From an uncultured Clostridia bacterium (GTDB lineage Bacteria; Bacillota; Clostridia; Christensenellales; UBA1242): a DNA stretch of 64,000 nt. A program made the position numbers and the translations under genes. The stretch lies in assembly GCA_944377825.1 (NCBI GenBank), contig CALWGA010000050.1:329-64328 (forward strand), read 5' to 3'. This document shows, in pieces, positions 9,522 through 61,682 of this stretch. The notes beneath the pieces were generated by a model. The model searched no databases. It saw only the letters and a program-made list of their open reading frames with translations, and was not told the origin of the DNA. Numbering within the stretch: the first letter of the stretch is position 1; every line of letters starts with the position of its first letter.

Positions 9522-9938
9522 TCAAAACTCCCCCCCCCGCACTGGAGTTTGCTTTTCAGTAGTCTTGGCTTCGCAAATGATAATTTCGCGCGCTTGCACA
9601 AGGCGTTTTTCACAATTTCGGCTATAGGTGTAGATGAAATCTTCGTTTCCGTTCTTCGAAATAAAAGATATAACTTGATATTTGCTCATGTCGTTGTTAT
9701 CTCTTTTGATTTTTATCTCCTCATCGCTTACGCCAGCGTTTTCAAATCTATAACATAATAAAGACGCATTGCTATTTAATGTTTGAACTGACTTTTCTGC
9801 CATCCATCTATTCGCATATTTATATAACTCCCAAGCAATATCGCCTGTCAAGTAAATTTTACTATCAGGATTATTTTTTATCGTGCCTTTTATAGTTTCA
9901 AAAATGTCGTCATTTTTATTGAAATTAACATTGTCCAT
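9522..9938 (-). CDS. Hypothetical 138-aa protein with a G9 tract in its last codons
   Basis: ORF with its own promoter (9969-9997) and terminator. No motif recognised. The coding-strand G9 (plus-strand C9 at 9530-9538) encodes ...RGGEF-stop. Confidence 0.55.
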   Translation of the reverse strand: MDNVNFNKNDDIFETIKGTIKNNPDSKIYLTGDIAWELYKYANRWMAEKSVQTLNSNASLLCYRFENAGVSDEEIKIKRDNNDMSKYQVISFISKNGNEDFIYTYSRNCEKRLVQAREIIICEAKTTEKQTPVRGGEF

Positions 9939-53138: not shown

Positions 53139-53177
53139 ATTAAATTAAACATCTAAATCCTAAGAATTAAAAAACGC

Positions 53178-53206
53178 TTGACTACTACCCCCCCCAATGT
53201 TATAAT
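53178..53206 (+). promoter_or_regulatory. Consensus promoter with a C8 tract in a 17-bp spacer
   Basis: TTGACT (53178-83) - ACTA CCCCCCCC (53188-95) AATGT - TATAAT (53201-06), with a TGT extended -10. AGGAGG and ATG 53230 lie 23 nt downstream. Confidence 0.7.
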
Positions 53207-53229
53207 AAGGATGATTTAGGAGGGAGATT

Positions 53230-54165
53230 ATGAAAAGTTATTATTACACAAAAAATCCAATTGATATGATATTCACTGACAAAAATGAAGCAGAGGAATT
53301 TTATTCAAGAATTAACGACATAGCTTTAAATCAACTGCTTGAAGAAAATAATTTATATGGTATCACAAAAGAAAATAGAAATGAAACGAACAAATTAATT
53401 GAAGCTCAAAACAATGATTATATTAATAGAGAAGGAAAATTTACTGCCTCAAATTTCGTCTTTTATCCAGATGTTTTTGATGAAAATGTAAATAAAGATG
53501 ATATGATGACAGATATTGCATACAACCCGAGCAGTTTATCAAACATATTCGCCACAGCCTATGATGATATGACATATAATAGTCATGCTGATAACTTACC
53601 TTCTTTCAGTGAAAGAGCAAAAGCACGGGATACATTAGTCCAAGCCGTAGAAAGGGGCGTCAATGTCGAAATATTAAAACTTCATCTTGCCAAAATCTTA
53701 AACGAACAAACCGCCGATATTAAGAAAAATGGCAAAAAGAGCATGTTTGCCATTACTGATATCGTGAGAACTGAAAACTTACTTTCTCATGCCGAAGAGC
53801 TTTCAAAAGATTTTTCTCCATATGATAAGCTTTTTAAAATGGGTGAAGAATTAGCGACACTCAAAGCCAAAGCTACAAAATTAGAAGGCGAAGAATGGGA
53901 AAAAGCACAAGATAAATACACTGATATGAAGATAGCGTTTAATAATGAATGTGCAAAATTTGATCCAGAAATGCTTCAAGATGTAGCAAATCACAGAAAA
54001 CAATACTATGTAGAAGTCGATAAAAACATGGCGATGTCTAAAAATACTGCTTTCAATTTAGACCAAACCATACACACACCAGCTTACCAAAGTACTTATA
54101 TTGTTGGATTTTACGTAAAAAACGCATTAGAAAAGCAAGAAAGAATGAGAAGCGAAAATAACTAA
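53230..54165 (+). CDS. Hypothetical 311-aa protein (orphan cassette 1)
   Basis: Strong RBS, own promoter and own terminator (ATACAGC-aaat-GCTGTAT-T7 at about 54168-54192). No signal peptide, TM helix or recognisable motif. Confidence 0.6.
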   Translation: MKSYYYTKNPIDMIFTDKNEAEEFYSRINDIALNQLLEENNLYGITKENRNETNKLIEAQNNDYINREGKFTASNFVFYPDVFDENVNKDDMMTDIAYNPSSLSNIFATAYDDMTYNSHADNLPSFSERAKARDTLVQAVERGVNVEILKLHLAKILNEQTADIKKNGKKSMFAITDIVRTENLLSHAEELSKDFSPYDKLFKMGEELATLKAKATKLEGEEWEKAQDKYTDMKIAFNNECAKFDPEMLQDVANHRKQYYVEVDKNMAMSKNTAFNLDQTIHTPAYQSTYIVGFYVKNALEKQERMRSENN

Positions 54166-54272
54166 AAAATACAGCAAATGCTGTATTTTTTTCATAATTT
54201 ATCTATTTTTTTGCCATTTTTTATATATTTTGAAATAATTTGTCTTATAGATTTTTTTTGACATTATCTTGT

Positions 54273-55724
54273 TTACATCAACTTTGAAGAATCTGTCGTC
54301 TCCACAACCTTTAAGATGTTTTCTTCTGCGCCGGTTTTAGCGTTGAAGTAGAAGTAATATGTTATTCCTTCTTTTTCACATTGATACTCATAGCACAAAA
54401 CCTCTCTATTATAATCAAGTGGAGCAAGCACCAAACGCTTAGTCACAATCTTAAATCCACTTGGGATGGAAACAGATACATCACTTGCCGAACCTAAAGT
54501 TCTATCAGTGTGGTTCGTGTAGTAGGAAATCGCATCATAGCCGATGACATTACCATACTCTAAATCCACCTTAACTTTCACAAGGTCCGGATAGAGAATG
54601 ATTCCATTTTCCTTTGGCGCGATGTTAAAATATGCTTGGTTGTTGAGTTCTTCACTCCAAACGATTTCAGGATTTTCGATGTCATTTGATTTTGCAAACT
54701 CTTTCGCTATCTTTTCGCCTGTCGCCATGTCTATATTTTTAACATCGCTGACATTTTGTCCACTGACAGTGAGAAGATGTCCGCCTTGTATGGTCACTTG
54801 TGCATATAATTCTTGATTGTCGCTTGTTATTACATCAAAGTTGTATGTTTGGAATTTTCCTTCCGTTCTGCCGTTATATGAATAAGAGGTCAAATCTTTA
54901 AAGACCTTGCCGAGCATTTCGCCAGCCTCTTCTTCTGTCACTTCACTGCCAGTTAAACCTTTAATTTTTTGGTTGACAACAGAGTCTGAGAAAGGTCCGT
55001 CGTAAATCATGGTTGGATAGTCAACATCGTTTGCCTTAATTTGATTGAAATCGACTGTGAAAGAGTTGAGGTCGCCATCCATTTCATTACTTGCCTTTAA
55101 AATGCTGTAACCATTTCGCATATCCATTGAAATTCTGTTTAAGTTATCTTTCATGCTGATGAGCGCCATATGAAGTTCCTGAAGCGTCGCAAGGTCGTCT
55201 TGCGATAAACTCTCGCCATTTGTCAACTTTTCTTCTAGAATTGTGGTATAGCCAGAAAGTTGATTGACAAAACTCACGCTCTCCAAAATATCATCGCCAG
55301 TGAGAGGCAAAAGCGCAATATTGTTTTGCATATTTTTGGAGGCGTCCGCAATCTCAGTCAACATCTTCTTTTGATATGTGGAACTTGAAGCATTTAAAAG
55401 TTTGCTCATCTCCATGTCGGCATTATTTACATTGTCAACAAGTTCGTAGTAATTTTTTTGATAGACGCTTTCAAGTTGCGTGCCATACGCGTCCACCTTA
55501 TCCTGTGTCACGCCGTATGCAACGCCTAAACCTAAAGTGGTTGCACCAAGTATTGCCACCGCAAGCGACAAACCGACAACAGCACTTTTAAATCTTTTAA
55601 TTTTAGATGATTTCTTTTCGCTCTCAATTTCGCATTTTTTGTTGGATTTTTTAGAATTTTCTAACTTTATTTGCGTTTTTTCTAAATTTTCTTGCGTAAT
55701 TTCGCCACTTTTTAACTTTTCCAT
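54273..55724 (-). CDS. ypeB: Germination protein YpeB
   Basis: 483 aa with an N-terminal TM anchor and C-terminal PepSY-like repeats. It lies immediately downstream of sleB, as in the Bacillus sleB-ypeB operon. Confidence 0.75.
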   Translation of the reverse strand: MEKLKSGEITQENLEKTQIKLENSKKSNKKCEIESEKKSSKIKRFKSAVVGLSLAVAILGATTLGLGVAYGVTQDKVDAYGTQLESVYQKNYYELVDNVNNADMEMSKLLNASSSTYQKKMLTEIADASKNMQNNIALLPLTGDDILESVSFVNQLSGYTTILEEKLTNGESLSQDDLATLQELHMALISMKDNLNRISMDMRNGYSILKASNEMDGDLNSFTVDFNQIKANDVDYPTMIYDGPFSDSVVNQKIKGLTGSEVTEEEAGEMLGKVFKDLTSYSYNGRTEGKFQTYNFDVITSDNQELYAQVTIQGGHLLTVSGQNVSDVKNIDMATGEKIAKEFAKSNDIENPEIVWSEELNNQAYFNIAPKENGIILYPDLVKVKVDLEYGNVIGYDAISYYTNHTDRTLGSASDVSVSIPSGFKIVTKRLVLAPLDYNREVLCYEYQCEKEGITYYFYFNAKTGAEENILKVVETTDSSKLM

Positions 55725-56409: not shown

Positions 56410-56449
56410 TTTTTTTTTTTTTTATCATCAAATTATCAAATGAATTTTT

Positions 56450-59608: not shown

Positions 59609-60841
59609 TTAAAAGTCTTTACCATCCAGCGAACGAGGATTGCCATTTCTAAAATGCTTATGTGCGCCTCTTTCTAAGTCAGTTTGCGTAAATGCATTTT
59701 TGTCATGATGATAGTTTGTTCCATCTTCAATTATCTTACGAATGCCAGCGCGAACTCCTTCCTTGTGCGCTTCTTCTTGTGCTTTCTTTAATTCTTCTTC
59801 ATATTCAGCACGCTTTTTGTCGATTATAGCGTGAAATTTTTTGTTTTCTATATTTAAAACTTGTTCTTCAATTTCTTCTTCAGACAACCCTGCATCTATA
59901 TATGGTTCACTTAACTCTATCAAATATGATGCAAATTCTTGATGGATTTTGTTCATCTCTTCACTGCCTTTAACAAAATTTTCAGCAGGATAACTTCTCA
60001 CTCTTTCATAAATTTCTGGTTCTTTCGTTTTTTCTTCACTTTCAGTATTTTTTGCTTCAGTTACATAAGTCTCACCATTTTCTTTAGCAATTTTAGCGTT
60101 AATATAATCAAGCACCCCTTGCCTAATAACAGAAAGAGAACTATCTTTGTCGCTTATGGCTTTTGCTTGCATATTGTTCATTGCCTTTTTATTTAAACTT
60201 ACAAAATCTCCAACTGTGGTTATTCCTCTATCTTTTAAATACTTCGAAAATTTCAATCCCTTATCAGTTTTTGGAACAAATATATCTAATGGTGTTTCAT
60301 CGTGAGCAAATTTAACTTTAAGGACTGGGTCGATTTTTTTATAAAACTTTCGCTTCATTTGTCTCGCTTTGTTACCTTTTGGTTCATCAAATAAATTAGC
60401 ATAACTTTTGCCCGCTATCAAATCTTCCTCATGCTCTGAGTGTTCTGGTTTGTCCACCACTGCCTGCTTGCCAAGAACTGAACTATCAATTTTTGCCATA
60501 ACCTCTTTGTTATAGATTACATGCGCCGCTTCAGATAAATTTCTAATAAGTCTGTTAAAATTTTCCTTTCGCACTCTTGCTTCACTATCCATAAATGTTG
60601 GATTGAATTTGGTTAGCATATATTCTAAATTTTGTTCATAAACAAAAAACTCTGGGTAACTTTTAAAACATTCAACCGCTTTTGTTGAATTACACTCTTT
60701 GCTAACTTTCAATCTTCCTGCATGCATTCTACTTGCAAAATCTACAGCATCCTTTGCAGTTGACCATCTCTCCTTTTGTAATATAATATCAACCCAATAC
60801 TGAATAGGTTGATCAGCAAACGAAATACGATTAGTTCCCAT
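59609..60841 (-). CDS. Hypothetical 410-aa protein (orphan cassette 2)
   Basis: Start set to ATG 60841 (GGAGG RBS 5 nt upstream; the track start at 60853 lies inside the RBS). No signal peptide. There is a possible helix-hairpin-helix segment, LKDRGITTVGDFVSLNKKAMNNM. Its stop abuts the veg stop. Confidence 0.6.
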   Translation of the reverse strand: MGTNRISFADQPIQYWVDIILQKERWSTAKDAVDFASRMHAGRLKVSKECNSTKAVECFKSYPEFFVYEQNLEYMLTKFNPTFMDSEARVRKENFNRLIRNLSEAAHVIYNKEVMAKIDSSVLGKQAVVDKPEHSEHEEDLIAGKSYANLFDEPKGNKARQMKRKFYKKIDPVLKVKFAHDETPLDIFVPKTDKGLKFSKYLKDRGITTVGDFVSLNKKAMNNMQAKAISDKDSSLSVIRQGVLDYINAKIAKENGETYVTEAKNTESEEKTKEPEIYERVRSYPAENFVKGSEEMNKIHQEFASYLIELSEPYIDAGLSEEEIEEQVLNIENKKFHAIIDKKRAEYEEELKKAQEEAHKEGVRAGIRKIIEDGTNYHHDKNAFTQTDLERGAHKHFRNGNPRSLDGKDF

Positions 60842-60895: not shown

Positions 60896-61103
60896 TAGGC
60901 AGTTTTTATAATTTACATCAAATTATAAACAAATCTATAAAAATAAAAAATCTTACAAATCAAAAAGTGTAAGATTATTTAAAAATATAAAAATGAAAGT
61001 AAAAATAATTTAAATATAAAGAGTGCTTTTCTCTATATTTTAACAAATAACACGACTCAACACCCCATTTTGTCAAATCAAACTAAATATTTTTCAAAAC
61101 CCC

Positions 61104-61132
61104 TTGACAACTCCCCCCCCCGATGTTATAAT
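61104..61132 (+). promoter_or_regulatory. Consensus promoter with a C9 tract in a 17-bp spacer
   Basis: TTGACA (61104-09) - ACT CCCCCCCCC (61113-21) GATGT - TATAAT (61127-32), with a TGT extended -10 and a 25-nt leader containing AGGAGG to ATG 61158. Confidence 0.7.
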
Positions 61133-61157
61133 GAGATTGAAATTCAAGGAGGAAAAT

Positions 61158-61682
61158 ATGAAAAGTTATAACGAAATAAAATCATATAACGAAATTTATA
61201 AAATAAACTATAAAACCAATGAGATAATAGACCGAGAAACAGGTAAAGTGCTCAAATTTTCAGATAGTAAAGCCGACAAACTTCAAGAAAGAGAAATTTG
61301 GTATAATCTTGCTCTTTACAGATTATGCACTTCACCAGGAAAACATTTAGTTGGAGATGAAGCACAGGATGCTTACAATGCACGCATAACCGAATTAATG
61401 ATACCTATAGTAGAAGATTTTGAAAAATTGGTAGCGACAAGTACCACAAAAAAAGGTGTAAACATATCAGGAGAACAAATAAAAGCACTTGAAGATAAAC
61501 ATTCATCGGAATTCAAATACACAAATGAAATAGTAAAATGCTTAACAACAAACCCATTTGTTTTAAAGGGAATAATTGACTATACCTTAGAAACAGATTT
61601 AGATTTAAAGCAATTTGGCGATTTATCTCTTTTTGGATTTACAACCACTCACCGACCAGTCGATGTTGAAATCAAAAGATAA
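61158..61682 (+). CDS. Hypothetical 174-aa protein (orphan cassette 3)
   Basis: The track ORF 61104..61682 starts at the TTG of the -35 box. The real start is ATG 61158 with an AGGAGG RBS, giving MKSYNEIKSYNEIYK... No motif recognised. Confidence 0.6.
   Translation: MKSYNEIKSYNEIYKINYKTNEIIDRETGKVLKFSDSKADKLQEREIWYNLALYRLCTSPGKHLVGDEAQDAYNARITELMIPIVEDFEKLVATSTTKKGVNISGEQIKALEDKHSSEFKYTNEIVKCLTTNPFVLKGIIDYTLETDLDLKQFGDLSLFGFTTTHRPVDVEIKR

Follow-up and report, generated by a model that had tools for sequence, protein, structure and literature searches.

Homopolymer tracts in near-consensus promoter spacers of orphan genes in an uncultured Clostridia bacterium and their probable role as slippage switches

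Genes A and B of this uncultured Clostridia bacterium encode dissimilar proteins but begin alike: at both loci (53178-53244 and 61104-61172) we find TTGAC(T/A)ACT, a run of eight or nine C's, ATGTTATAAT, a ribosome binding site (RBS) and ATGAAAAGTTAT, which opens both genes and encodes MKSY. The question raised by this pair is whether the common 5' end is a module that was duplicated or recombined as a unit and fused to divergent bodies, as an original prediction proposed by analogy with the Mycoplasma vlp and vsa families, or whether it has another origin. The sequences are as that prediction described them: in the window (the whole stretch of 64,000 nucleotides that was analysed), the pattern TTGACWACT-N(8-14)-ATGTTATAAT has two matches, exactly sites A and B, versus 0.00 expected in shuffles.

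The window has a GC content of ~37% and carries spoVG, ypeB, sleB, spoIIR, sipL, veg, mur/ddl genes, recJ, rpoC and ppdK. It is 94-98% identical to the MAG uncultured Clostridia bacterium E10__bin241, and proteins identical to those of the window occur in ENA and Logan metagenome assemblies. A and B are separated by 8 kb, and ypeB, sleB, spoIIR, sipL, veg and other genes lie between them.

Predicted promoters and the orphan genes behind them

By their sequence, sites A and B and a third site, C, are predicted sigma-A promoters that come close to consensus and have an extended -10 box (Table 1). The consensus match is 11/12 for promoter A and 12/12 for promoters B and C, and TG is found in all three. 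These are also the best three sigma-70 matches within 52.5-62 kb, while the whole window contains five perfect sigma-70 matches, two of them with a homopolymer run. All three sites have recognisable -35 and -10 boxes with a homopolymer of about 8 nt or more in between; it begins 3-4 nt past the -35 box and makes up about half of the spacer, which is at the optimal 17 bp in A and B and at 18 bp in C. The AGGAGG of site A begins 12 nt after the -10 box, and the leader of gene C contains GGAGG between its promoter and the ATG. The B and C tracts are separate, ~230 bp apart within one 316-bp intergenic region. No Rfam matches or leader RNA elements were found in 52-62.5 kb.

Table 1. Coordinates of predicted promoters, genes and associated features in the window.
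Feature	Position	Strand	Description
G9 run (C9 on + strand)	9530..9538	-	Inside 3' end of 138-aa orphan ORF 9522-9938
Promoter A	53178..53206	+	-35 TTGACT 53178-53183; 17-bp spacer ACTA-C8-AATGT; C8 53188-53195
Promoter A extended -10		+	TG 53198-53199 and TATAAT 53201-53206
RBS A and gene A	RBS 53218-53223; ATG 53230, stop 54165	+	RBS AGGAGG; 311 aa
Hairpin terminator of A cassette	54164..54191		
Gene C	59609..60841, ATG 60841	-	410-aa orphan, transcribed divergently from gene B
Gene C mosaic	Replaced part 60825-60121	-	5' end to ~60826 conserved; codons ~6-240 replaced; codons 241-410 conserved
Promoter C	60895-60866	-	-35 TTGACA 60895-60890; 18-bp spacer AGT-G8-AGTGTGA; G8 60886-60879
Promoter C extended -10	TATAAT 60871-60866	-	TGA and TATAAT; divergent from gene B
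Promoter B	61104..61132	+	-35 TTGACA 61104-61109; 17-bp spacer ACT-C9-GATGT; C9 61113-61121
Promoter B extended -10	TATAAT 61127-61132	+	TGT and TATAAT
RBS B and gene B	RBS 61146-61152; ATG 61158, stop 61682	+	RBS AAGGAGG; 174-aa orphan

Runs of C8 or longer (C or G, either strand) occur at four loci in the window compared to 0.11 matches expected, and outside these four loci the 64 kb contain no C/G runs of 6-7. Two of the four, the tract of promoter C (G8, spacer 18) and the C9 run at 9530-9538, were absent from the original prediction. The latter lies 15 nt ahead of the stop codon of a 138-aa orphan ORF located between rpoC and serS, where a one-base change would alter the C-terminal tail only. 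As a promoter element this run was rejected, there being no -10 box at the right distance on either strand.

The products of genes A, B, C and D gave nothing above noise in Pfam, PHROGs, PADLOC and NCBIfam; none of them matched a restriction-modification or defence model, and no signal peptide or transmembrane segment is visible in any of the four. Family A comprises 41 clusters at 90% identity (21 representative clusters among 1.84 billion), family B has three other clusters (75-87% identity) and family C has four clusters. The AlphaFold models are all-helical, that of the gene A product being confident with a pLDDT of 82 and that of the gene C product having a pLDDT of 66; Foldseek found no PDB match for either model (best E-values 0.29 and 0.93, TM ≤0.23). 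The segment GITTVGDFVSL in C recalls, by eye, the helix-hairpin-helix of the RNA polymerase alpha C-terminal domain, a likeness that no tool confirmed. Ten other poly-C-driven Clostridia proteins yielded one marginal DKNYY match. A, B and C are thus fast-evolving, non-secreted orphans of tiny families that lie in variable hotspots. A phage or mobile origin was rejected, as such promoters had 0 matches in 2.9 million viral contigs.

Tract length in strains, orthologues and other phyla

The original prediction likened the homopolymer-containing promoter to those of phase-variable genes, and this part of it is borne out: the tract lies in the spacer, its length varies in near-identical strains and it is kept in diverged orthologues. 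Among sequences from independent samples that are 99-100% identical to the window, site C has C8 in six (window included), C9 in six and CCA-C6 in one; these are assembled metagenome contigs, several of them covered only 2-6x, and assembly can misstate the length of a homopolymer, a caution also raised elsewhere (PMC9187656). A 94% strain has CCCCTCCC at this site and a more distant allele has GGGGGAGG. The promoter C spacer is 18 or 19 bp in every strain and was never seen at 17. At site B, most contigs have C9, one has C10 via a G-to-C change and two have CCCTCCCCCC. The site A spacer is 17 bp in the window and L002 versus 15 bp in L001.

The C8 and C9 states of site C are scattered over SNP haplotypes, such that at least two independent changes are needed on any tree, and much of what little variation separates close strains falls in the tract columns. 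When the window was compared with L001 (99.5% identity over 3.5 kb), 7 of the 17 differences fell within the 43 bp from the spacer to the RBS of A and none within its 936-bp CDS. Mutation at the tract is therefore elevated and recurrent relative to the flanking DNA, with recombination as a possible source of some of the change. The window also has a suspicious T15 run at a position where all other strains have an RBS.

In the orthologues of A at protein identities of 67%, 48% and 36% alike, TTGACA-A(C/A)T-C8..10 is kept ahead of the -10 box: TTGACAACT-C9-GATTTATAAT at 67%, TTGACAACT-C8/9/10-ATTGATATAAT at 48% and TTGACAACT-C8-TGTGTTATAAT at 36%. One species has C8, C9 or C10 (in one, two and nine contigs, respectively) ahead of an identical A-family protein, with resulting spacers of 16, 17 and 18 bp, and it also carries a TTGACATT-G7/8/9-...TAAAAT promoter upstream of a neighbouring orphan gene of 238 aa. 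The 75% homologue of B keeps C9, and the 83% homologue has CCCCTTTT in the tract with the spacer still at 17 bp. The 41% homologue of C keeps an identical G8 promoter. In a distant member of the A family, which lies in a different genomic context, the spacer has a T-run and no C-run.

The original prediction named restriction of the module to two loci, together with a similarity that is not significant given AT-rich composition and generic consensus, as the outcome that would count against it. Sites A and B do not stand alone: besides promoter C in the window itself, a scan of one genome per species with the pattern TTGAC-N3-5-C7-N1-6-TGNTATAAT retrieved more than 119 poly-C promoter loci across phyla. 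Of the 41 matches listed from genomes below 42% GC, 34 have exactly C9, six have C8 and one has C10, and C7 was never found; chance would favour the shortest run in such a scan. Assembled spacers among the matches listed from other low-GC genomes group at 15-16 and 19-20 bp and not at 17. A near-identical core, CTTGACAACT-C9-G(A)TGTTATAAT, recurs in organisms that are unrelated, one of them a Bipolaricaulota MAG with a GC content of 68%. In Mucispirillum, Treponema, Oscillospiraceae and others, many of the downstream genes have lipoprotein or signal-peptide starts; in the low-GC Clostridia MAGs the downstream genes encode hydrophilic orphans. In several taxa, both members of an orthologous pair have retained the run. 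Related low-GC Clostridia loci also have intragenic G9/C10 tracts, one of which splits an ORF into parts of 117 aa and 240 aa. A scan of JGI metagenomes gave four matches, none from this clade.

Resemblance of A to B and turnover of the genes

A repeat finder pairs 53167-53214 with 61093-61140 (48 nt, 81%) and 53214-53253 with 61142-61181 (40 nt, 73%), and these pairs exceed nearly all other repeats in the region (≤31 nt). Such lengths favour the reading in which A and B carry one homologous 5' module that was duplicated, or moved by recombination, onto different bodies in the manner of vlp or vsa. So do the identical first four codons, and so does the 67% homologue of A, whose core CTTGACAACT-C9-GAT(-)TTATAAT is one base from that of B. 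When A and B were ranked among 595 pairs of poly-C promoters from low-GC genomes, however, the promoter, the leader and the upstream segment of 12 nt each came no higher than the top 15-16%, and only the first five codons stood out (top 1.7%). Leader and codons combined placed the pair 8th, behind true orthologues, and our own Fisher calculation over all four segments gave p ~0.01.

The start itself has a history in each family. An M-(K/R)-(S/N)-(Y/F) start is found in 3 of ~13 families. Family A begins M(K/Q/I/R)(S/G/N)(Y/F)YYT(K/Q)(N/D/Y)P (MKSYYYT, MQSYYYT, MQSSFFT, MIGYYT, MKNFYYT, MRYYT) and family B begins M(K/R)(S/N)Y(N/D) (MKSYNEIKSY, MRNYDIIKSY, MRSYDVIKSY), an MKSY-like start being ancestral inside each. 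Past codon 4 the two proteins are dissimilar, as originally noted; remote homology was rejected on a weak, C-terminal BLASTP match (E-value: 0.013) and an hhalign probability of 0.2%. Gene conversion from B to A was also rejected, given that the derived bases in the A allele of the window do not match B.

The surroundings of the genes likewise differ from those of the Mycoplasma families. No recombinase-like ORF is present in 42-64 kb, the repeat finder found no meaningful inverted repeats flanking genes A, B and C, and a tandem cluster of A/B paralogues is absent. In place of the long shared 5' block of vlp, A and B have an identity that ends after codon 4 and is no greater than unrelated promoters of this class can show, and in place of silent promoter-less copies and recombination sites, each gene has its own promoter. 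The claim of a module duplicated or recombined in one piece is therefore not upheld. The same core occurs in unrelated phyla, the similarity is ordinary for the class, the starts are ancestral, the proteins are unrelated at the profile level and a relative of A has a T-run instead of the C-run; the resemblance of A to B is what is ordinary for two promoters of the poly-C class and does not amount to evidence for a copied module. The residual signal, consisting of the Fisher value and the recurrent start, leaves a small share of probability for an old common origin, and we consider one shared module unlikely.

Exchange of coding sequence behind a conserved promoter does occur in this region and is the further point in favour of a mobile 5' end. 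Across the two promoters, the leader and the opening ~15 nt of C, L159 and L160 are 92-94% identical to the window. All DNA similarity is then lost for ~720 bp, a stretch in which protein identity is clearly below that of the C-terminal part; at codon ~241 it returns, with 88-98% identity onwards through veg and sipL. The alleles of gene C are a recombination mosaic with one breakpoint just past the start codon. A test for breakpoints at this position had been proposed, and one exists, but between alleles of gene C (~15 nt past the ATG). The mosaic is seen between strains and not within one genome.

In two related species, the veg-ppdK slot holds a single non-homologous gene of 187-188 aa behind a poly-C promoter. 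Positional equivalents of B (L103, L107) were rejected as its homologues. The A cassette (53142-54273) is missing from the 94-98% identical MAG, and in another species all that is left of it is the promoter, fused to the last 79 codons. Taken together, the A, C and veg-ppdK slots are hotspots of gene turnover.

Slippage switching, its alternatives and known systems

The most likely explanation for the tracts, to which we assign a probability of about 0.7, is that they are mutational dimmer switches, in which slipped-strand mispairing retunes the spacer length and promoter strength of orphan genes. During replication, the run would gain or lose a base by slipped-strand mispairing and the spacer would move between about 15 and 19 bp; the -35 and -10 boxes would then be mis-aligned for sigma and transcription of the downstream orphan gene would go up or down. 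Such a change in length would be heritable and reversible. The strength of sigma-70 promoters depends on spacer length, and it is from this rule that tract length is expected to alter transcription here; switching within a population is likewise presumed to be frequent and reversible. Because the boxes are at consensus, spacer length would be the main variable, and the tract could act as an ON / dim / OFF dial. Observed directly are the architecture, the length polymorphism, the conservation of the tract across diverged orthologues and its decay to interrupted tracts with the spacing kept. Some observations weigh against a slippage switch. The products have no signal peptide and no restriction-modification or defence match, which makes them atypical targets for contingency switching, where surface-exposed or restriction-modification products are usual although not strictly defining; promoter C is never at spacer 17; and the low-GC spacer clusters at 15-16 and 19-20 are not predicted by a simple "majority state is ON" model.

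From the very sharp C9 mode in different phyla one could also suspect a role for the sequence itself, and the C-run might be a fixed cis-element, either a regulator binding site or a rigid G/C stretch by which the geometry of the spacer is set, with the length differences being ordinary strain divergence. The preponderance of exactly C9 in several phyla (among the matches listed), the retention of the run upstream of orthologues down to 36% protein identity and the recurrence of ACT or a T base right before the run would all suit such an element. It fits poorly with tracts that are interrupted or replaced (CCCCTTTT, CCCCTCCC, CCCTCCCCCC, GGGGGAGG) while boxes and spacing are kept, with length states that are homoplasic among 99.5-100% identical haplotypes, with C8, C9 and C10 all preceding one identical protein, and with a run that may be C or G on the coding strand. 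Long retention combined with flickering length and with interruption ("locking") at constant spacing argues for a mutable switch rather than a fixed binding site, and we judge the fixed element to be improbable. Chance similarity of AT-rich promoter and RBS consensus, or assembly artefacts, would be compatible with the fact that the shared elements are mostly consensus boxes and with the T15 run of the window, but would not produce the excess of C8+ loci over expectation, the same tracts in more than 20 independent assemblies or their fixed position in the spacer. This reading is effectively refuted, and we give it hardly any weight.

Slippage in promoter spacers has well-characterized precedents. 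In Neisseria meningitidis, porA and fetA have poly-C or poly-G in or beside the -35/-10 spacer. At the opc promoter the number of C's dictates Opc expression, 11 versus 12 C's giving low versus high Opc (PMC3447861). The tracts described here resemble opc, porA and fetA in placing a G/C homopolymer in a sigma-70-type promoter, where single-base slippage could give graded output. They differ in that the host belongs to the spore-forming gut Clostridia, the tracts are 8-10 nt long compared to 9-17 in Neisseria, the hexamers are perfect consensus with an extended -10, and the products are cytoplasmic-looking orphans rather than outer-membrane proteins.

In the vlp family, the paralogues form a tandem cluster and have in common a long, highly conserved 5' block, of which a lipoprotein signal peptide is part. 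Transcription of vlp, maa2 and vmm is switched by indels in the -35/-10 spacer; in vsa and vpma a promoter, RBS and 5' coding end are placed before alternative 3' bodies (PMC2268961). The proposed likeness to these families holds in part. As in vlp of Mycoplasma hyorhinis (poly-A spacer), there is a homopolymer in the spacer, the bodies are divergent and each gene has its own tract; unlike vlp, identity is confined to four codons, no signal peptide or tandem gene cluster is present, A and B lie 8 kb apart between core genes, and the similarity is at the level of the promoter class. The mosaic alleles of gene C resemble vsa of Mycoplasma pulmonis and vpma of M. agalactiae superficially, but those systems rely on a tyrosine recombinase, on inverted recombination sites and on silent copies that lack a promoter within one genome, none of which is present here.

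The divergent B and C genes recall hif, in which one TA dinucleotide repeat in an overlapping spacer serves both promoters. Haemophilus influenzae hifA and hifB are divergent genes under repeat-length changes in their promoter spacers (PMC9187656). B and C instead have two separate homopolymers in their shared intergenic region, which would allow them to switch independently. Campylobacter jejuni, a low-GC genome, has intergenic and intragenic G/C tracts of ~8-10 nt (PMC8355987). The related Clostridia resemble it in having a set of G/C tracts including intragenic G9/C10. The Campylobacter tracts are mostly intragenic and in surface-structure genes, whereas in the window three of the four tracts lie in promoter spacers, with orphan genes behind them.

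In gut commensals, work on phase variation has centred on the invertible promoters of Bacteroides; slippage-type promoter switches are barely documented for Clostridia, and our literature searches found none described. Homopolymer-spacer phase-variable promoters are a known mechanism, here in an unusual host and on unusual cargo. More speculatively, and at odds that we put well below even, hypermutable poly-C sigma-A promoters may serve this lineage as a dedicated system for expressing rapidly replaced, non-secreted orphans that lie in recombination hotspots flanked by core genes (spoVG-ypeB, veg-ppdK). This would be a new functional type of contingency set, serving for example intracellular phage defence or sporulation bet-hedging, in a design that would have arisen convergently in at least five phyla.

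The pattern TTGACA, 2-4 nt, C8-10, TGnTATAAT is a cheap search key, as the candidate loci already retrieved across phyla demonstrate, and in metagenomes tract length offers a convenient marker with which to follow population dynamics, both among strains and within a host. Given the mosaic alleles of gene C and the exchange of genes behind promoters that stay conserved, these slots deserve further attention as recombination hotspots. If the convergent design of consensus boxes and C9 is true, it would point to a general design rule for slippage promoters. If the tracts switch, uncultured spore-formers carry stochastic on/off control over lineage-specific products that are not obviously surface-exposed, and the range of uses for contingency loci would be wider.

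Mosaic structure of gene C and variation in the gene A cassette

When the window was compared with contigs L159 and L160, gene C (a 410-aa orphan behind a promoter with a G8 run) was found to be a mosaic between alleles. Identity is 92-94% across the promoter and the first ~15 nt; DNA similarity is then absent over codons ~6-240 and returns at 88-98% identity over codons 241-410. In the same comparison, conservation of the intergenic region exceeds that of the core genes on either side. The contig of one strain, L127, agrees with the window as far as the loop of the hairpin AATCTTACA...TGTAAGATT, beyond which it turns GC-rich and encodes a protein that looks topoisomerase-like by eye; either the assembly is chimeric here or a mobile element has inserted.

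The cassette carrying gene A (a 311-aa orphan) is absent from a MAG that is 94-98% identical, where ~130 bp are found instead. In a species that is 75-80% identical (L114), the last 79 codons of A are joined directly to the poly-C promoter, and beside this remnant lies an additional 294-aa gene with repeats that, judged by eye from its sequence, looks leucine-rich-repeat-like. The species carrying the A-orthologue of 48% protein identity has another promoter, TTGACATT-G7/G8/G9-ATATTTGG-TAAAAT, and the gene behind it is a 238-aa orphan placed between A and ypeB.

The sleB upstream region and a tRNA-Leu island

A T15 run is located immediately upstream of the sleB-like gene of the window. At this position, each of the five other strains checked has TTTTCCTCCCTTTT, corresponding to GGGAGG, the RBS of the sleB-like gene, when read on the minus strand. 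In the window this RBS has been erased by five C-to-T changes, and a G-to-T change is found nearby. Either the RBS has really been lost or the consensus of the source assembly is in error here. Elsewhere in the window, tRNA-Leu(CAA) precedes a low-GC island (0.29-0.31) containing a 286-aa orphan gene and the gene for a 550-aa N6 DNA methylase (PF02384); this is probably a restriction-modification island.

Coordinates of the features (window positions unless a compared contig, designated L, is named)
Feature	Location	Strand
G9 run	9530-9538	-
138-aa orphan ORF	9522-9938	
tRNA-Leu(CAA) and low-GC island	42237-45228	
Gene A cassette	53142-54273	
~130 bp in place of gene A cassette	L041 7344-7477	
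Promoter/A remnant and adjacent 294-aa gene	L114 1043-2260	
sleB-like gene, ATG	56409	-
T15 run	56413-56427	
Changes at and near sleB-like RBS	56413-56427, 56447	
Gene C	59609-60841	
L127 switch	L127 5569 onward (equivalent to window 60968)	
Second promoter, species with 48% A-orthologue	L137 3312, L147 3239, L148 1927, L026 4274	
Intragenic G9/C10 runs	L092 1338, L011 1511, L052 5817	
Mucispirillum promoters	L020, L023, L027, L031, L038, L048, L062, L067, L090, L091, L095, L098, L110, L125	

Homopolymer runs in coding sequences and in promoters of other phyla

Between rpoC and serS, a 138-aa orphan ORF contains a G9 run 15 nt ahead of its stop codon. The effect of a one-base change in this run is limited to an altered or extended C-terminal tail, and the run is of equal length in the single other contig that carries the ORF. 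Intragenic G9 or C10 runs are also present in MAGs of related low-GC Clostridia. In one of these (L092), the run stands between a 117-aa ORF and its 240-aa continuation, which is in the next frame; this is the arrangement of a classic frameshift-type switch.

Among the matches listed, Mucispirillum genomes have many copies of TTGACA(T/A)T-C9-(A/G)TG(A/C)TATAAT, invariably with C9 and a 15-bp spacer and mostly ahead of lipoprotein or signal-peptide genes. At a Bipolaricaulota locus, two contigs with identical flanks differ in having C9 versus C12 (L162/L164; L025/L050). L162 and L164 are both from metagenome Ga0256839, and the difference hints at tract heterogeneity inside one sample.
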